The notes beneath the pieces were generated by a model, which saw only the letters and a list, made by a program, of their open reading frames with translations, had not been told where the DNA came from and did no database searches. DNA of 64,000 bases from Escherichia phage vB_EcoM_ESCO45: sequence record OM386661.1, one strand, 5' to 3'. Positions within the stretch are counted from its first letter, which is position 1. Each line of letters begins with the position of its first letter. A program made the position numbers and the translations under genes. Of the stretch, positions 35,713-47,807 are shown piece by piece.

Positions 35713-36813
35713 TTATTCATAATCTCGTATAACGAGACCAACAGGGAACTGTAAAGAACCCTTACGAGTCATCTTCTGGAACTGAACCGTTAAAGGCTTC
35801 CCGATAAACTCTTCAGGATGCTCAGCAAGATACTGTTTCTTCTCATGAGTAGTCTTCCATGAGACATCTACAAAGACGTTAGGAAGAGTCTCTACAACGA
35901 ACTTACCGTGGCCACGTTTATCGGTCTTGACACCAGTCACTTTAAACTCTTCAGTGTGCATCTTCTTATGCTTAATCAAGAAGTATGAACGGTGACCACA
36001 CTCATAGAAGGAGTCTTCAGAGATTGAACGGTACATTGCACCTTCAAACTTAGCTTCAACCCACTTATCATGGGCTTCATCAAGCTCTTCCCAAGAATTT
36101 ACACGGATAGTCTGTACAGGAACAACTCTACAGGTATCTCCAAGTTCAACAATGGGTGAGTTATCAATAACTTCACGACGCTCAGGCCAAGATTTTGAAT
36201 TGTCACAGATATCATACCAGTAGAATTTAAGAAGGTGACGGTCTGGATTATCAGCATTCTTAATCATAGACACAATATCTTCTAAGTCCCAACCATGAGC
36301 ATAAATCTCTCCATCAAAGTCTTCAACTTGTGGATGTAATTTAAGCAACAAAAGCAAATCTGGGATTAGTTCTGCTGGAACGTTGTAAACAGTATTCTCA
36401 CGAGAATAAGCTGTGAAACTGACTGAATCAGCATCTCTTGAAATTCTACAACGTACACCATCCAGTTTTGGTTGAGCATCAGCAGGGAACTTCAGATACT
36501 TTGCATGGCTAACCTTTGCAGCATCATGAGCAAGCTGTACACCTACCTTCTCAGTATTCTGTGCAGACTCTTTTGTGTAAGCATAACCTTTACGGTCAAC
36601 TTGCTTTTTATACTTAGCAGCAACTTCAAAGAGAGCTTGCTGTTCAGCATTACGCTCATTCTTTTTACCGATATTTTTAGGTTCTGCTGTATACTCTTCA
36701 AACATCATCTTGCCATTTTCTTTACCGTAGGTTGTAATAACTTTGTCACCTACAGCAGCACATGACCAGACGTTGAAAGAACCATCTTTATTTTGTTTGT
36801 ATAGTGTTGTCAT
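35713..36813 (-). CDS. ATP-dependent DNA ligase
   Basis: Nucleotidyltransferase motif I KLDGVR (KxDG), downstream DGEIY and EGAMYRS motifs; size similar to T7-type ligases. Confidence 0.8.
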   Translation of the reverse strand: MTTLYKQNKDGSFNVWSCAAVGDKVITTYGKENGKMMFEEYTAEPKNIGKKNERNAEQQALFEVAAKYKKQVDRKGYAYTKESAQNTEKVGVQLAHDAAKVSHAKYLKFPADAQPKLDGVRCRISRDADSVSFTAYSRENTVYNVPAELIPDLLLLLKLHPQVEDFDGEIYAHGWDLEDIVSMIKNADNPDRHLLKFYWYDICDNSKSWPERREVIDNSPIVELGDTCRVVPVQTIRVNSWEELDEAHDKWVEAKFEGAMYRSISEDSFYECGHRSYFLIKHKKMHTEEFKVTGVKTDKRGHGKFVVETLPNVFVDVSWKTTHEKKQYLAEHPEEFIGKPLTVQFQKMTRKGSLQFPVGLVIRDYE

Positions 36814-37025: not shown

Positions 37026-37259
37026 TTAAAAGGATAAGTCAATATTAATACGTTCGCCCTTAAGGACTCCTGTACGGTCTCTTGCAATCTTGCCGTCAAC
37101 AATAAGGATATGTGCAGACCTTAAAGCGTCACCATTAAAAGTTTTTACGAACTTACTAGGCATCACTACAATGGGCATCTCCTGAATCATCTCTTGAGTA
37201 TAGCAATTGTCGTGAAGTTGCTGAATAACGTCTGCAAGTGTCATTTTTGATGTCTCCAA
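37026..37259 (-). CDS. hypothetical small protein, paralog of 37447..37665
   Basis: Shared C-terminal motif IVDGKIARDRTGVLKGERINIDL vs IAGGKIAKDKTGYLKGERVGIENL. Confidence 0.45.
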   Translation of the reverse strand: METSKMTLADVIQQLHDNCYTQEMIQEMPIVVMPSKFVKTFNGDALRSAHILIVDGKIARDRTGVLKGERINIDLSF

Positions 37260-37450
37260 TATTCAATATCAATAAGTTCTTGTGCAATACTTTTCAGATT
37301 ACCTTTCAAGAAAACCTTCTCAGAACCTGAAAGAGATGAATTGTCAATTAACCTGTTCATTCTCTCAAACAACTTCTGTTTACGGTTCTTGATAGTCTCC
37401 TTTGAAGCACCTTTCATCATCGCTGCATGGGTTCTTCCACGGTGGCTCAT
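37241..37450 (-). CDS. hypothetical small basic protein
   Basis: 69-aa ORF. Confidence 0.35.
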   Translation of the reverse strand: MSHRGRTHAAMMKGASKETIKNRKQKLFERMNRLIDNSSLSGSEKVFLKGNLKSIAQELIDIEYWRHQK

Positions 37451-37665
37451 AGCAAATTCTCGATGCCTACACGTTCACCTTTTAAGTACCCTGTCTTGTC
37501 TTTTGCAATTTTGCCTCCAGCAATAAAGATATCTACTCTACGCAGAAATTCAGGACTTACCTTCAAATTTCTGGAACCACTGCAAAGAACAATAAACATC
37601 CCTTCAATCTCTTTTTGAGAATAACCAGCACATTGCAACTGAACTTCAATCTCTGAAAGTGTCAT
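37447..37665 (-). CDS. hypothetical small protein, paralog of 37026..37259
   Basis: See paralog; similar length and C-terminal motif. Confidence 0.45.
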   Translation of the reverse strand: MTLSEIEVQLQCAGYSQKEIEGMFIVLCSGSRNLKVSPEFLRRVDIFIAGGKIAKDKTGYLKGERVGIENLL

Positions 37666-37716
37666 AAGTCCTCCTATACAAGATATAGTATAAGGTACTC
37701 TTCCCTGAGCACCTTG

Positions 37717-38220
37717 TCAACTTAGTTTTGCAAACTCTCCGTGGAGTTTAATAGCAGCTTCACAGTAAGCTTTATGGGCTTCTTCAGGTGTGTCAAATAA
37801 ACCAAGTGATGTCCTTTTACCTCTGCATGTTATAGCTGCCCTCCACTTATTGCAGTCTTTAAAGTAATATACACCCTTGTAACCTGATTTGTTAGTCGTC
37901 TGCTTTACTCTGTTTTGAGCGTTTCCATATTTATCGGCCTCTCTAAGATTAGAAATGTGGTTATTACTCCTATTACCATCAATGTGGTCTATCATCTTAG
38001 TAGGTTTGTAACCATGCTCAAACCACCAAACAAGGTGATGTACTTTTATTACAACACCTTTGAATTTAAGTACCCTGTAACCATAAGCATCACTTCCTCC
38101 GGCAACCTGACCAGCTTTAGCTTGCCTATTCCTGTCATACTTGTTGTAGAAGACCCCTTTGTCGGGGTCGTAAATAAAATTATCCTTGTAATCTTGAAGT
38201 GTTAGTGTACGGCGTACCAT
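37717..38220 (-). CDS. HNH homing endonuclease with AP2 DNA-binding domain
   Basis: HHLVWWFEHGY...IDHIDGNRSNNHISNLR (HNH) then YKGVYY...WRAAI...GLFDTPEEAHKAY (AP2-like); abuts DNA polymerase gene. Confidence 0.8.
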   Translation of the reverse strand: MVRRTLTLQDYKDNFIYDPDKGVFYNKYDRNRQAKAGQVAGGSDAYGYRVLKFKGVVIKVHHLVWWFEHGYKPTKMIDHIDGNRSNNHISNLREADKYGNAQNRVKQTTNKSGYKGVYYFKDCNKWRAAITCRGKRTSLGLFDTPEEAHKAYCEAAIKLHGEFAKLS

Positions 38221-40931
38221 GTCTTACCTACCTTACCAGTGCCTGTAACAAGCGTCTTACTCTTTAATCCAAGATTTTTTGATGCTTGACCATACATTCT
38301 ATCAATAATCTCCTTAACATCTGGTACATCTTTTGTTGGAACCTCTAAAGAAACTTCGTCGTGGTAACTACAGACCCATCTAGCACCAATAGCTGGTTTC
38401 CTACCATTTAGGACTGTAAGTTTTCGCTCTGTTAACTCTCTGTTAGCCAAGTTAATACCCTCATTCTGCACCTGCGCCTCACTGCCCATAAGTGTGTAAT
38501 TCAATAACTTATGTGGAGATTTACACCATAACCACGCTCCAGCAACTTTGATATAACCACCTTTGGCAATTGCAGAAGTTTTTCCAAAAACCTCTTCAAG
38601 TGCTTTCTTAGTTGCTTTGAAGTCCTCCTCTAGTCTATCGAGCAGCTTTTTAATCTTAGGTAGACGCACAAAGTAAGTTTGTTTAGTCAATGCACCTTCT
38701 TCCGTAGATGATGCCTTGATAGTTTTCGCGAACTTCTCATCTCCGGCTCCAAATAACAGGGCGTAGATGCCATTTTTGCTCTTCTTACGGCCTTTTGTAA
38801 TCTCGTGAAGAAGTTCCTCATCCTGTGTCTCCCTACAACGAACAATATCTTCTTCTTTGTTCAGACCAAAGTAAATACTGTTCAGTGTATGTGCATCAGT
38901 CCCTGTGTAGACTTCATAGAGGTCATTTTCAGCATCATAACGCAGATACTTGTCAGTTTCTGGGTTAAGATACTTGTCAAGATGCTTACAGTAGTATCTA
39001 CCATCATCTTGCTTAGTGAACTCTACTGACTCTTTACCCTCAGTTACCGCTTTAGTGAAGTCTTCATCACCCATAAAGTTACAAAGAAGAACTAGCTGGG
39101 CTGAGTTTTGGTCTACGGAGATGATATCTGTACCATCTTCACAAGTCCACACCTCCCTCATAGGTGCTCCATAAACAGCAGCACCAGACGGTACGTTTAC
39201 AATACCATATTGTGTCATACGTCCAGTTGAAGTACCAAACACCATTGCACCAGCACTAAGGCGACCATCTGGACGAATCTGGTTCAACCAACCTTTTTCA
39301 TCATCCTTTGAGTTCTCAATAGTTCTGCGTCGGTGCATCAAAGTATAGTATTTAGCAATCTTCTGTCCAAGTTCACCTTCAATCGTATCATAAGATGATT
39401 CAGTAAGTTTTGGTGAAGTACGGATTAAGCAAGGCTCAAGCAAATCTGTGTATTTCTTCACAGACCAGTTATGCTCAATGTACTGGACACCTTCATGTTC
39501 AACATAACTCAAACCACACTGCTCAACCATTTCCTGCCACTTAGGATGTTTTGTAATCATCTTTTTATTGTCTTTGAAACGACAAACTTTGACAGGGCGA
39601 CCGTCTGAGTCTTTCTTGTAGTTCCAGTCATCTGGAATCCAACCAACTGATTTCAAGTAGTCTTTAACAACTGCTACCTGAGTCATACGAGAAACTTCAA
39701 ACTCAATTGGTGTATACGGTGCATCAATCAAACCTGTGTAGCGACTTGACTCAAGTTCAAAGTGGTTAACAACGTGGCTGTTATAATACTTCACAGTTTT
39801 GACTGTTTTTACTGGCTTCCAGTCTTTGCACTTCTTACCAATCTTTGCATTCAACTCGTTGCAAATTGCACGAGCATCCTTCATTGCTACAAAACCTTCC
39901 TTGTACTCTTCACCAGTTACAGAGTTGGTTGGTGTATAGCAATTCCTTTTTTCAATGTTAAAAATCTTTGTAGTTGGCTTACCAAATGGTTTGATTTCGT
40001 ATGTCTGCACCTCACCATTACGTACCTGCTGACGATACTTTGTCTTAGGGTACTTGGTAATTCTTTTCAGTCCATCTGCATGACCAAATGTTTCAACATA
40101 CTCATTCCAAGCTTTTGCAAACTCTTCTCCAGTGACTTTACCTTTGGTCTTAATAGTTGGAGGAAGATGTGGTTCAACTTCTGAAGCAAGCTCATTAGTC
40201 AACTTGTCAAGTTCCTTTACATGGAACTCCATAAGCTCTTTATCAGCTTTCCAGCCATTGATAGCTTGTTGACTCATCCAGAAAGATGTTTCTTTAGCTC
40301 GCATGTAGGTTTCATAAGTGTCTATGCCACACTTCTTAAGCTTGAGATACTCGTTATCAAGTGCCCGTTTAGTTTTGGCGTTAATACGGATATCATCTAC
40401 AACACGAGTGAAGATTTCTGCATTCCACACACCCCAATGCTCAATCTCTGGCTTACGAACACCAACACGAGCACCCCATGCAGCCAAACCATGAGCACCT
40501 TTATAACCCTTTGGAGTTGGCCTATCCATCCACTGAACACGAGACTGGATAAGAGAATCCTGAAAGAAATTACTCCACGGCTTACATTTTGGATTATCAA
40601 AGTTCCATAAATCAGGTGCAATGTGATTGAAAACCCACCAGTCATAACCGAGACCATTATGGATGCAAAGACGTTTCGCCTTTAACGCAAACTCAACACC
40701 TTCACGTAAACCACCTTTAAGGTACTTAGTGTACTTGTGACCGAGGATAGGCTCATCTGTAAAGACCCATACAGGTGGCTCTTCATCGTCAGATTTATAG
40801 TCTGCGAAAGCCATTACGTGCACTTTAGTGAACTCAAGGAGCAAACCATCAGTTTCTGTATCGCCAACTAAATGTAAGTTTTTAAAATCTACGTTTTCCA
40901 TTTTTACTCCCTCTACAATCATTAACCTCAT
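38202..40931 (-). CDS. DNA polymerase, family A, with 3'-5' exonuclease domain
   Basis: Exo motif VGDTETDGL; motif A-like ISVDQNSAQLVLL, motif B-like KNGIYALLFGAG, motif C SYHDE; true start may be the internal Met (MENVDF) 10 codons downstream. Confidence 0.85.
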   Translation of the reverse strand: MRLMIVEGVKMENVDFKNLHLVGDTETDGLLLEFTKVHVMAFADYKSDDEEPPVWVFTDEPILGHKYTKYLKGGLREGVEFALKAKRLCIHNGLGYDWWVFNHIAPDLWNFDNPKCKPWSNFFQDSLIQSRVQWMDRPTPKGYKGAHGLAAWGARVGVRKPEIEHWGVWNAEIFTRVVDDIRINAKTKRALDNEYLKLKKCGIDTYETYMRAKETSFWMSQQAINGWKADKELMEFHVKELDKLTNELASEVEPHLPPTIKTKGKVTGEEFAKAWNEYVETFGHADGLKRITKYPKTKYRQQVRNGEVQTYEIKPFGKPTTKIFNIEKRNCYTPTNSVTGEEYKEGFVAMKDARAICNELNAKIGKKCKDWKPVKTVKTVKYYNSHVVNHFELESSRYTGLIDAPYTPIEFEVSRMTQVAVVKDYLKSVGWIPDDWNYKKDSDGRPVKVCRFKDNKKMITKHPKWQEMVEQCGLSYVEHEGVQYIEHNWSVKKYTDLLEPCLIRTSPKLTESSYDTIEGELGQKIAKYYTLMHRRRTIENSKDDEKGWLNQIRPDGRLSAGAMVFGTSTGRMTQYGIVNVPSGAAVYGAPMREVWTCEDGTDIISVDQNSAQLVLLCNFMGDEDFTKAVTEGKESVEFTKQDDGRYYCKHLDKYLNPETDKYLRYDAENDLYEVYTGTDAHTLNSIYFGLNKEEDIVRCRETQDEELLHEITKGRKKSKNGIYALLFGAGDEKFAKTIKASSTEEGALTKQTYFVRLPKIKKLLDRLEEDFKATKKALEEVFGKTSAIAKGGYIKVAGAWLWCKSPHKLLNYTLMGSEAQVQNEGINLANRELTERKLTVLNGRKPAIGARWVCSYHDEVSLEVPTKDVPDVKEIIDRMYGQASKNLGLKSKTLVTGTGKVGKTWYAVH

Positions 40932-46766: not shown

Positions 46767-47807
46767 ATGGAGAAGTACACATTAACAAAACTTCCCGATT
46801 CAGTTACACATGTTTTTATTGACTCTGACAGTATCGCCTATAAAGGTGCTTGTGTAGTTGAGAAAGCAAAGTATAAATACGTCAATAAACTCACAGCAGA
46901 AGAATCTGAGCCATTTGATAATGCGAAAGATGCTGCAAGATGGTTAGCAGACCAGAGAATCCTTGTGGAAGAACTTGGCCTGACATTTGATGAAGATGAA
47001 TGGGAAAGACAGACTTGGAAAGAAGCTAAGAGCGAAAAAGAAGCTATCATGGCTACTCAACAGGTTCTTCAGGAATGGCTTAAGGTTGTTGGTAAAGAGA
47101 GAACTTGGGTAGGCTATTTAACAGAGAAAGGTGTGCATAAACATAAAGACGTTAAAGGTCTTGAGCACCAATATCAAGGTAACCGCAAAGATGCTGTCAC
47201 ACCAACACACTTAGTTGCTTGTCGTGAATATCTTTTATCCAGACCAGAGTTCAAACTAATTCTTGATGGATTTGAAGCCGACTCTATCGTTATTGCTAAA
47301 GCTGAAAAGATGGGTAAAAAGGCTGCCTTAATGAGTATTGATAAAGACCTTCGCCAAGCTGAAGGAACTTACTGCATTGATATGACCTATGAAAAGTCAC
47401 CTTTGATTTTCATTGCTGATAACAACGTTGGTGAAATTTGGGATTGCCCAATAAAATCAACACCAAAAGCTAAGAAGACAGTTGGTGTAGGTTTTAAATT
47501 CCTTTGTTACCAAGCTGTGGCTGGTGATAACGCGGATAATTATTTTGGTTTAAAGGGCGTTGGTAAGGCTACTGTAATGAAAGCACTTGAAGGTAAAACC
47601 ACCTACAAAGAGTGTCTTGATGCAATTTATGAGCTTTATGCTAAGAAAGAGTCATACACTTATGTCTCGTGGGATGGTCAAACAATCACCAGAACACCTT
47701 TAGAGTTAATGCAGCAACACTTTTTCTTAGCTTATCAGGAAAGAAACAAGAAAGACGATTTCACTTTTAAGAAATATAATTGGGAGCCGTGTATGAATGA
47801 AGATTAA
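46767..47807 (+). CDS. 5'-3' exonuclease / flap endonuclease (T7 gp6-like)
   Basis: Acidic clusters (FIDSDSIA, SIDKD) and H3TH-like GLKGVGKAT motif. Confidence 0.65.
   Translation: MEKYTLTKLPDSVTHVFIDSDSIAYKGACVVEKAKYKYVNKLTAEESEPFDNAKDAARWLADQRILVEELGLTFDEDEWERQTWKEAKSEKEAIMATQQVLQEWLKVVGKERTWVGYLTEKGVHKHKDVKGLEHQYQGNRKDAVTPTHLVACREYLLSRPEFKLILDGFEADSIVIAKAEKMGKKAALMSIDKDLRQAEGTYCIDMTYEKSPLIFIADNNVGEIWDCPIKSTPKAKKTVGVGFKFLCYQAVAGDNADNYFGLKGVGKATVMKALEGKTTYKECLDAIYELYAKKESYTYVSWDGQTITRTPLELMQQHFFLAYQERNKKDDFTFKKYNWEPCMNED

Follow-up and report, generated by a model that had tools for sequence, protein, structure and literature searches.

Directly downstream of its family-A DNA polymerase gene (pol), the Escherichia phage vB_EcoM_ESCO45 (OM386661.1) very probably carries a free-standing homing endonuclease that combines an I-HmuI-like HNH core with an AP2 domain, and this is our best explanation for the gene at 37717-38220. 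Its nuclease activity, its cut site and its homing are what we infer from sequence comparisons. The 64,000-nucleotide stretch of DNA that was analysed (the window) belongs to Felixounavirus, shows 98% identity with the E. coli phage ESCO56 and was compared with a set of about 263 related GenBank records. Around pol, mosaicism affects only the final ~1 kb of the gene and follows the element content. Judged by identity and position, the gene is an orthologue of the annotated genes Felix O1 gp95 and ESCO56_00112 and was therefore already known.

The HNH-AP2 gene and its position at the 3' end of pol

A preliminary description of this DNA had proposed a free-standing HNH endonuclease with an AP2-type domain next to a family-A polymerase gene, and both assignments are borne out by the ORF and the domain and PHROG matches (Table 1). 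The scores of HNH_3 and AP2 both exceed the Pfam gathering score in the 167-aa protein, which also matches PHROG 99 ('HNH endonuclease') at 3.9e-66. Its nearest relative with a solved structure is I-HmuI (PDB 1U3E, phmmer E 4e-5), and D78-H79, N91 and N100 of the window protein align with D74-H75, N87 and N96 of I-HmuI; the roles of these catalytic residues were reportedly described by Shen et al. in 2004. The catalytic D-H...N...N motif is unchanged across every allele family at the pol site. The AP2 domain weakly matched AP2/ERF domains of plants in the PDB, and a single-sequence AlphaFold2 model of the protein was unusable (pLDDT 39, pTM 0.35). NCBIfam gave no match for the HNH-AP2 protein or for the GIY-YIG protein described below, and tblastn of both against all 64 kb returned self-matches only and no paralogues.

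Table 1: Features of the HNH-AP2 locus and of the GIY-YIG region in the window.
Feature	Position	Strand	Evidence
Free-standing HNH-AP2 homing endonuclease gene (predicted), allele family 'w', 167 aa	37717..38220	minus	ORF and Pfam domains
HNH_3 catalytic (beta-beta-alpha-metal) domain, aa 59-101	37918..38046	minus	Pfam PF13392, E 1.7e-12
AP2-type DNA-binding domain, aa 112-161	37738..37887	minus	Pfam PF00847, E 2.5e-11
Constant 3' end of 69 nt (EEAHKAYCEAAIKLHGEFAKLS, the last 23 codons)	37717..37785	minus	allele alignment
GC hairpin GACCCC-N6-GGGGTC in the HNH coding region (codons D18 P19 .. G22 V23)	38152..38169	minus	motif scan
Conserved intergenic segment TTGACAAGGTGCTCAGGGAAGAGTACCTTATACTATATCTTGTATAGGAGG, right-hand border of the insertion site	37666..37716	minus	alignment, pairwise comparisons
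19-nt overlap of the HNH start codon with the last pol codons and stop	38202..38220	minus	sequence, alignment, junctions
Family-A DNA polymerase (pol), uninterrupted	38202..40931	minus	PF00476 2.5e-15; PHROG 17 3.5e-112
Divergent pol 3' haplotype block tied to the w HNH allele	38221..39200	minus	sliding identity, diagnostic sites
Empty group I intron site in motif B of pol, between NGIYA and LLFGAG	38758..38759	minus	relatives' intron boundaries
3' part of the 5'-3' exonuclease gene, divergent up to the second HNH-AP2 site	47200..47807	plus	identity to wV8
GIY-YIG (SegE-type) domain protein, 165 aa	47797..48294	plus	PF19835 SegE_GIY-YIG, 6.9e-28

As pol extends from 40931 down to 38202 and the HNH gene from 38220 down to 37717 on the same strand, the HNH gene lies at the 3' end of pol. 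The overlap of about 19 nt noticed earlier is thus real and measures exactly 19 nt, but its placement at the 5' end, against the start of pol, has to be corrected. The pol gene, for which the annotations of relatives give a start at 40922 and 906 aa, has a complete C-terminus (...GKVGKTWYAVH, followed by the stop codon). The HNH ORF has its own ATG in a frame other than that of pol and lies outside any intron or intein. An Rfam scan found no group I intron within the window, and an intron- or intein-encoded origin of the gene is excluded by the intron-less window and by the separate ORF after a complete pol. The ATG arises from the pol codons ACA-TGG (T904-W905), which read AGC-TGG in phages with an empty site, and the pol codons GGTAAGGTAGGT slightly upstream of it resemble a Shine-Dalgarno sequence; translation of the HNH gene is probably coupled to pol or re-initiated from it. 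In empty-site phages the intergenic segment TTGACAAGGTGCTCAGGGAAGAGTACCTTATACTATATCTTGTATAGGAGG comes straight after the pol stop. A promoter and terminator scan of 37300-38600 gave nothing beyond shuffle expectation, and the conserved intergenic TTGACA...TATACT was not called a sigma-70 promoter because its spacer is 22 nt.

The window gene itself adds little, being a copy of the annotated HNH-AP2 endonuclease of the Felix O1 family. Felix O1 ORF95 (gp95; Felix01p176, NP_944955 'HNH endonuclease') shows 94.4% nt and 95% aa identity to it and ESCO56_00112 (UPW39821.1) 99.6% nt and 99% aa identity; both have the same position and the same 19-nt overlap with the pol stop, and with no substantive difference between them the window gene is another isolate's copy. 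Annotations as HNH or homing endonuclease at the same position are found in ESCO56, ESCO50, Felix O1 and fBSPA4; ESCO56 and ESCO50 were isolated in the same study as ESCO49, whose site is empty. Felix O1 has been reported with six HNH copies (PMC3185647), and the HNH-AP2 architecture has been in the literature since 2004, when, as cited in PMC6781369, Magnani et al. described AP2-HNH endonucleases of Trichodesmium, Tetrahymena, phage RB49 and Felix O1. Going by that citation, this set shares the two-domain architecture of the window gene and has Felix O1 proteins among its founding examples. DNA binding was assayed for the cyanobacterial AP2 domain with poly(G)/poly(C) and not for the phage proteins, as far as the account in PMC6781369 goes.

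Empty sites, allele families and the mosaic block in pol

The site is empty in 99 records, where the pol stop TAAT is directly joined to AGTATTGACAAGG, and occupied in about 155 records carrying the HNH 3' end, which in the checked loci was found only at the pol-linked site. Clean inserts of 504-535 nt in an otherwise matching haplotype were seen when the empty-site phage ESCO49 was compared with the genomes L015 and L026 and with Mushroom, and when Mordin was compared with Michonne, with 97.7% identity across pol. Occupation of this one site is shared by at least four HNH-AP2 allele families with a mutual aa identity of only 38-56%, the w allele of the window being present in 17 records. Across these families the constant 3' end shows 94-100% nt identity, and it is missing from the HNH-AP2 paralogue linked to the exonuclease gene. 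All eight w alleles sampled were intact without frameshifts or stops, with a dN/dS of 0.04-0.15 over the whole ORF and a dS of 0.1-0.49 among them. A truncated HNH copy, annotated at 354 nt, was found in Si3.

The sequence flanking the insertion is divergent as well. Compared with relatives lacking the w allele, sliding identity is 95-100% over the first two thirds of pol, drops to 60-85% in the block and is back at 96-99% directly after the HNH stop, whereas the last ~1 kb of pol is 92-100% identical to phages carrying w. Consistently, 128 of the 137 diagnostic pol sites fall within the last ~980 nt, and the left border of the block differs between genomes, though only modestly among those with w. 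The w pol block was found in exactly 17 records at 92.9-98.6% (next best match 68.7%), and all w-HNH records that were listed or compared as loci are among them. For the last kilobase of pol at least eight haplotypes tracking the element content could be distinguished, while pol positions 1001-2000 form one cluster. This explains how users of phages in therapy and biocontrol can be misled by phylogenies built on pol and by PCR typing that targets its 3' end. With empty sites, clean insertions and a sharp mosaic boundary, the earlier reading of the HNH gene as a homing-type gene and mobile element adjoining a conserved essential gene gains support, and the comparison with HNH-less relatives proposed there gave 99 empty-site records in place of a universal presence at the locus.

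The GC hairpin inside the HNH gene occurs once in the window (0.03 expected), in 26 of 26 HNH-bearing loci and in none of 19 loci without a free-standing HNH-AP2 gene. All four stem codons are invariant across five allele families, compared to 3 of 26 other columns with an invariant amino acid. It is present in both the MFE and the centroid fold of 38100-38260, a region with an overall z-score of 0.14 in which only this local 6-bp hairpin stands out. A specificity of the hairpin for HNH genes had to be rejected with 89 of 124 IMG/VR instances outside HNH ORFs, and these often precede T-runs and resemble ordinary terminators.

Proposed homing and its alternatives

We propose that in a mixed infection with an empty-site phage the enzyme would nick or cut the rival's DNA within or close to the junction of pol stop and intergenic segment, and recombinational repair would then copy the donor HNH gene plus flanking pol sequence (co-conversion). 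As a result the HNH gene would spread and the pol 3' markers of the rival would be excluded. Free-standing endonucleases of phages are known to carry out intronless homing, co-conversion and trans homing (PMC3984707, PMC2790892), and our literature search found no biochemical or genetic test of any Felixounavirus HNH-AP2 protein. I-HmuI and I-HmuII from the Bacillus phages SPO1 and SP82 are, like the window gene, associated with a phage family-A DNA polymerase. I-HmuI, however, is located inside a group I intron and has a different C-terminal DNA-binding region, whereas the window gene is free-standing, follows the pol stop and has an AP2 domain; the similarity covers only ~57 residues. Since I-HmuI is a nicking enzyme (PMC3428280), a nick-initiated mechanism is suggested by analogy for the window enzyme. 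T4 MobE and SegG are free-standing endonucleases between conserved genes like the window gene; co-conversion of flanking essential genes in tracts from hundreds of nt up to about 2 kb, and a nearby non-autonomous intron that may ride along, are further likenesses to what is proposed for the window locus. MobE/I-TevIII trans homing and SegG co-conversion have been described (PMC2790892). MobE differs in its host genes nrdA/nrdB, in the lack of an AP2 domain and in that its activity has been demonstrated, while that of the window enzyme is predicted.

A retention of the gene for the benefit of the phage, either as a weapon in interference competition with co-infecting relatives or in another role in DNA metabolism, and not as a purely selfish or currently homing element, appears somewhat unlikely to us. 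The divergence of the w alleles together with the strong purifying selection would fit long-term beneficial retention at least as well as homing by invasion and decay: dN/dS stays at 0.04-0.15 despite a dS of up to 0.49, every sampled w allele is intact, multiple allele families are kept at one locus and, as outlined in PMC11620839, there is a precedent for an endonuclease in phage-phage competition. Against this stand the 99 relatives without any gene at the pol site, for which the HNH gene must therefore be dispensable, and the truncated copy in Si3. Furthermore, marker exclusion is common to both readings, and a benefit of this kind would not exclude homing. The linked w block could also go back to one ancient recombination followed by vertical inheritance in the 17-record clade, instead of repeated homing. 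That its left border varies only modestly among w genomes likewise counts against homing.

A second alternative concerns a group I intron in pol, which is absent from the window. In 97 relatives it interrupts pol at the equivalent of 38758/38759, 555 nt upstream of the pol stop, either without an ORF (~270-315 nt) or with an ORF of 160 aa (~800 nt), and Rfam RF00028 was matched with 59-62 bits in Mushroom, fBSPA4 and REP6. The intronic ORF is a PF02945 Endonuclease_7 protein without HNH_3 or AP2 match, and this family assignment excludes it as a homologue of the free-standing HNH gene. The megablast search for it caught one of two sequence variants (21 records), and counts of ORF-containing introns are therefore lower bounds. 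With a free-standing HNH gene next to pol and an ORF-less intron in the pol of relatives, the HNH-AP2 enzymes might cut pol at or near the motif-B intron site and in this way mobilise their own genes along with the ORF-less intron. The constellation resembles T3 gene 5.3, a free-standing HNH gene adjoining the phage DNA polymerase gene with relatives carrying a group I intron in pol; T3 gene 5.3 and I-TslI of PhiI/W31 are homologous and cut at the same position, as reportedly found by Bonocora and Shub in 2009. Precedents for such collaborative or trans homing are T3 gene 5.3, F-CphI and MobE (PMC3984707, PMC2790892).

Several observations point in this direction. The ORF-less form of the intron is found with HNH genes of the w, B and M types (L007, L010, L041, L004), tootiki and fBSPA4 being phages that combine it with the w HNH. 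None of the 45 ORF-less-intron records listed is found among the listed empty-site records, while most introns with the Endonuclease_7 ORF (at least 19 of 28) lie in genomes whose HNH site is empty. In addition, the divergent tract linked to w (39200-38221) covers the intron site, and genomes of the B type share the w haplotype only from ~370 nt upstream to ~110 nt downstream of this site. Yet none of the 137 diagnostic pol sites, nor the intron site among them, distinguishes Mi- and M-type genomes (L015, L019, L026) from empty-site genomes, so that enzymes of these types targeting this sequence would cut the very genomes that encode them. The same match between Mi-/M-type sites and empty-site genomes is the reason why synonymous differences near the intron site found no general support as an immunity against the HNH enzymes. 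In contrast to the T3 5.3/I-TslI pair, the intronic ORF of the relatives comes from another family and is no HNH_3-AP2 relative. Moreover, most HNH-bearing genomes, the window included, are intron-less, and the association comes from few independent lineages with markers 555 nt apart, so that linkage alone could yield it. We regard trans homing of the intron by the HNH-AP2 enzymes as unlikely.

That the ORF is an inactive remnant or an AP2-only DNA-binding regulator without nuclease function is very improbable with the catalytic D-H...N...N invariant in all allele families, eight of eight alleles intact and a low dN/dS throughout the ORF, even if AP2 domains elsewhere serve as DNA-binding modules of transcription factors and constraint at the DNA or RNA level is evident from the conserved GC hairpin and the constant 3' end.

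One could also picture the last kilobase of pol as an arena of several homing elements, in which at least four HNH-AP2 alleles compete at the pol stop, the motif-B intron is present with or without its Endonuclease_7 gene, the ORF-less intron is mobilised or maintained in trans by the HNH-AP2 enzymes and a selected, terminator-like hairpin (GACCCC-N6-GGGGUC) in the 5' coding region of all HNH-AP2 genes throttles HNH expression, but we consider this whole picture speculative and rather doubtful. Felixounavirus is a convenient natural system for studies of homing: 38% of its ~260 genomes have the empty site, four or more alleles are available and, at a distance of 555 nt, there is an intron that may or may not encode its own endonuclease, and these easily grown E. 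coli and Salmonella phages could serve for tests of intronless homing, allele competition and trans homing.

The GIY-YIG gene and the exonuclease-linked site

The GIY-(x10)-YIG motif noticed earlier at 47797 is present (FVY32-x10-Y43IG) in a match to the SegE-type Pfam model, but the use of this gene as a second marker of mobility and of a mosaic boundary could not be upheld. The first 11 nt of its ORF are shared with the end of the 5'-3' exonuclease gene (46767..47807) that precedes it. The gene was found in 297 records, 261 of them with the full length, with per-host counts equal to those of the pol region, and it is syntenic in Felixounavirus, Mooglevirus and Kolesnikvirus with 61-99% aa identity and with Y32, Y43-I44-G45, E112 and N135 invariant across the three genera. 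No clean empty site flanked by the exonuclease gene and the small downstream ORF turned up in any of the 297 records. Given this distribution it belongs to the fixed core genes of the Ounavirinae, lies outside any mobile element detectable here and is unsuitable as a mobility marker.

An active mobile Seg-like homing endonuclease at a mosaic boundary is highly improbable here, although the SegE-type domain is matched at 6.9e-28, some GenBank records call the product 'GIY-YIG homing endonuclease' and a divergent tract lies directly upstream. T4 SegE and other Seg enzymes have an N-terminal GIY-YIG catalytic domain as the gene at 47797 does, but the latter has no recognisable DNA-binding extension: just 27 residues remain beyond the catalytic domain, and Pfam and NCBIfam gave no hit to a DNA-binding domain. 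A PDB sequence search gave a chance match to a kinase only and no relative. Instead of a patchy distribution the gene shows fixed, subfamily-wide synteny, being present in all relatives with the pol region, and it is itself 93-100% identical to wV8.

The divergent tract upstream belongs to another HNH-AP2 site. Compared with wV8, the 3' part of the exonuclease gene shows 69-90% identity and the sequence upstream of it 95-100%. This second site is empty in the window and occupied in wV8 and Felix O1, with wV8 gp114 being an HNH-AP2 relative of 35% identity.

Results and Discussion

The HNH-AP2 gene of the window abuts the gene for the family-A DNA polymerase (pol) and, since both genes lie on the minus strand, pol precedes it in the reading direction. 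The preliminary description had placed the endonuclease gene at the start of pol and had the orientation wrong, as it lies at the 3' end; apart from this the observation is real, and the overlap has the claimed length, covering the last 19 nt of pol with its stop codon (38202–38204) inside. The C-terminus of the polymerase is complete in the window (...GKVGKTWYAVH, followed by the stop). The HNH protein matches Pfam HNH_3 (aa 59–101, E 1.7e-12, 47 bits, cut-off 24.8), AP2 (aa 112–161, E 2.5e-11, 44 bits, cut-off 33.3) and PHROG 99 ‘HNH endonuclease’ (3.9e-66).

Features of the pol locus (window coordinates unless a locus is named; L004, L007 and L010 are fetched loci of relatives)
Feature	Position	Strand	Remarks
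HNH-AP2 gene	37717..38220	minus	ORF, 167 aa
Family-A DNA polymerase	38202..40931	minus	PF00476; PHROG 17 at 3.5e-112
Hairpin GACCCC-N6-GGGGTC	38152-38169		encodes D18-P19..G22-V23 of the HNH protein
pol intron site	38759/38758 (window-equivalent)	minus	motif B, between NGIYA and LLFGAG
Intron in L004	4513-4817		
Intron in L007	4095-4377		
Intron in L010	4642-4925		

The pol-to-ligase region (5.3 kb) matches 263 phage records, nearly all from Felixounavirus or other Ounavirinae, with E. coli phage vB_EcoM_ESCO56 as best match (98.2% over 100% of the query). The HNH gene is already known, since ESCO56, ESCO50, Felix O1 and fBSPA4 carry the same 504-nt gene with the same overlap, annotated as HNH or homing endonuclease, and since the literature on Felix O1 describes such genes: its genome paper noted six HNH endonuclease copies without functional data (PMC3185647), and its AP2-HNH proteins belong to the earliest AP2 proteins reported from outside plants, according to the passage of PMC6781369 that refers to Magnani et al. 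2004. Felixounavirus pol/HNH/intron sequence with 94–99% identity also occurs under the names of unrelated hosts in GU169904 (Staphylococcus phage SA1), MG065664 and MG065668 (Campylobacter phages A132 and A126), probably due to contamination or mis-assembly.

The proposed comparison with relatives lacking the gene fixed the insertion boundary. In ESCO49 and JH2 the downstream small gene directly follows pol, and by alignment with filled loci the empty site reads ...GGTACACTAAT joined to AGTATTGACAAGGTGCTC..., the filled site ...GTACACTAA, about 480 nt and then AAGTTGACAAGGTGCTC.... A 53-nt query spanning the empty junction, which scores only if the junction is contiguous, detected empty sites in 99 records; the HNH gene, at least its 3' end, is present in 155, both counts including GenBank/RefSeq duplicates. 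In every locus opened the HNH 3' end comes directly after pol. ESCO49 is collinear with Mushroom and with two further filled loci (L015, L026) up to the pol stop, where 504–535 nt are inserted before homology resumes at TTGACAAGG, and even one Mooglevirus species includes an empty (Mordin) and a filled genome (Michonne) with 97.7% identity in pol. These pairwise comparisons are clean insertions at the pol 3' site and, together with the empty sites and a mosaic boundary, they support the reading of the HNH gene as a mobile-element-type gene.

At least four protein families occupy this site with a mutual identity of only 38–56%, all of them with HNH_3 and AP2 domains: w (167 aa; window, Felix O1, ESCO50/56 and fBSPA4), M (178 aa; Mushroom), B (177 aa; bumzen and REP6) and Mi (170 aa; Michonne, and Si3 with a copy annotated as truncated). 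Their junctions with pol differ, as the ATG of w is built from the pol codons ACA-TGG and that of M lies inside TAT-GAG, and B starts 3 nt past the stop. The last 69 nt (23 codons; window 37717–37785) are common to all four families with 94–100% nucleotide identity. As the exonuclease-linked HNH-AP2 paralogue in wV8 does not have it, this constant 3' end is a property of the pol locus and not of the protein family, and it might serve allele replacement as a recombination arm, or contain an overlapping DNA signal. The pol locus is a tidy natural system for the study of competing homing elements, which is an extension of what is known and no surprise. Downstream of the HNH gene the window has two paralogous small genes of PHROG 4230 (37026–37259 and 37447–37665, minus strand, 77 and 72 aa) with a PHROG 5180 gene (37241–37450) between them; the HNH-adjacent copy (~210 nt) is absent from Felix O1, Mushroom and bumzen; the polymorphism is a duplication or an indel.

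Sliding identity between the window and 11 relatives revealed a mosaic pol gene. In the 5' two thirds non-w phages show 95–100% identity and w phages are likewise high; from 39200 to 38201 the values are 60–85% for non-w and 90–100% for w phages, and just below 37700 ESCO49 shows 96–99%. The haplotype comparison was extended by 31 further IMG/VR loci, and in it all eight w-HNH genomes, but no others, had the w haplotype across the final 280 nt of pol (94–100% versus 63–71% identity to the window). Pol positions 1001–2000 put all 31 Felixounavirus loci into a single cluster with at least 93% identity; the final kilobase falls into at least eight haplotypes that track HNH allele and intron state. 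The window differs from the commonest haplotype at 137 diagnostic sites, of which the first 1750 nt contain 9 and the final ~980 nt 128, and the left border of the divergent block varies somewhat among genomes. The polymerase proteins of the window and ESCO49 are near-identical to residue ~596, with about a quarter of the positions differing beyond it. Over all GenBank records, exactly 17 have the w-type 3' segment of pol (92.9–98.6%, next best 68.7%); the w HNH is also in 17, and all w-HNH records listed or fetched are within the former 17. Endonuclease-linked co-conversion of the flanks would be expected to leave this pattern (PMC2790892, PMC3984707), and a single old recombination passed down within a clade would look similar.

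The DNA ligase gene (35713–36813) is intact in the window and annotated as two CDSs in skuden, radambza, momo and others, and identity to JH2, Si3 or fBSPA4 dips to 68–74% around 36100–36400. A further insertion or mosaic site is probable in this gene.

The eight w alleles that were sampled are all intact, with pairwise dN/dS of 0.04–0.15 at dS of 0.1–0.49. The closest solved structure to the HNH protein is I-HmuI (1U3E, E 4e-5), an HNH homing endonuclease that nicks DNA and is encoded in the intron of the SPO1 polymerase gene. D78-H79 and N100 align with its D74-H75 and N96, residues of the catalytic motif, and the D-H...N-L-R...N columns are invariant in all allele families of this putative endonuclease. 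Genomes bearing Mi or M equal empty-site genomes at 137/137 diagnostic pol sites. Because for these alleles the insertion junction is the sole sequence difference between self and target, the data point to the classical case of a putative recognition site that is split by the insertion, and homology would favour the same for w.

Mushroom, fBSPA4 and REP6 have pol annotated as two CDSs, separated by a full-length group I intron (Rfam RF00028, 59–62 bits, cut-off 50). An intron at pol motif B is present in 97 related records, either ORF-less (~270–315 nt) or, as in JH2, Si3 and EC6, ~800 nt long with a 160-aa Endonuclease_7 ORF; none was found in the window, which has an intron-less pol allele, and our literature search found no published description of the motif-B intron. 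None of the 45 ORF-less-intron records listed is among the empty-site records listed, and the HNH site is empty in at least 19 of the 28 records whose intron contains an ORF. Among the records cross-checked, ORF-less introns occur only with a free-standing HNH gene, a co-occurrence that resembles collaborative or trans homing (PMC3984707, PMC2790892). We nevertheless consider such a partnership unlikely, as the two sites lie just 555 nt from each other, there are few independent lineages, and the match of M/Mi genomes to empty-site genomes at the diagnostic pol sites speaks against cleavage at the intron position.

The gene at 47797 does encode the GIY-YIG domain noted before (PF19835 at 6.9e-28, FVY-x10-YIG), yet it is no marker of mobility or mosaicism as had been suggested, but a fixed core gene. 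It occurs in 297 records, in 261 at full length, its per-host counts equal those of the pol region (Escherichia 119/119, Shigella 23/23, Citrobacter 11/11 and so on), and the order exonuclease, GIY-YIG, small ORF, MazG, nrdA is kept in Felixounavirus (wV8), Mooglevirus (KPS64, 85% aa) and Kolesnikvirus (Erwinia phage FIfi106, 61% aa). The protein extends only 27 residues beyond the catalytic domain and showed no DNA-binding domain. Some records mislabel the gene as ‘NAD synthetase’. The divergent tract nearby (47200–47800, to 47807) is the last ~600 nt of the 5'-3' exonuclease gene, with 69–90% identity to wV8 compared to 95–100% around it and 93–100% inside the GIY-YIG gene. Between these two genes there is a second HNH-AP2 insertion site (1980–2504 in the fetched locus L043), where wV8 and Felix O1 carry an HNH-AP2 gene 35% identical to the pol-linked one; in the window this site is empty. 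The architecture is that of the pol locus.

A GC-rich hairpin, GACCCC-N6-GGGGTC, lies inside the HNH gene and occurs once in the window (0.03 expected). It is present once per locus in 26/26 HNH-bearing loci, the exonuclease-linked paralogue included, and in 0/19 loci without a free-standing HNH-AP2 gene. Across 12 sequences from five families (35–56% identical) all four stem codons are invariant, including the otherwise rare CCC and GGG, compared to 3 of 26 other invariant-amino-acid columns keeping a single codon; the loop is variable, and the hairpin appears in both MFE and centroid folds. A terminator scan did not call the w-allele hairpin, whose U-tract is weak. In IMG/VR the motif lies outside HNH genes in 89 of 124 instances, often with T-runs after it, and these copies look like ordinary intrinsic terminators. 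The hairpin could plausibly attenuate read-through that enters the endonuclease gene from the gene upstream of it. Elsewhere in the window 16 tRNA genes are clustered at 2364–6574 (Rfam), as is typical of Felix O1-like phages.
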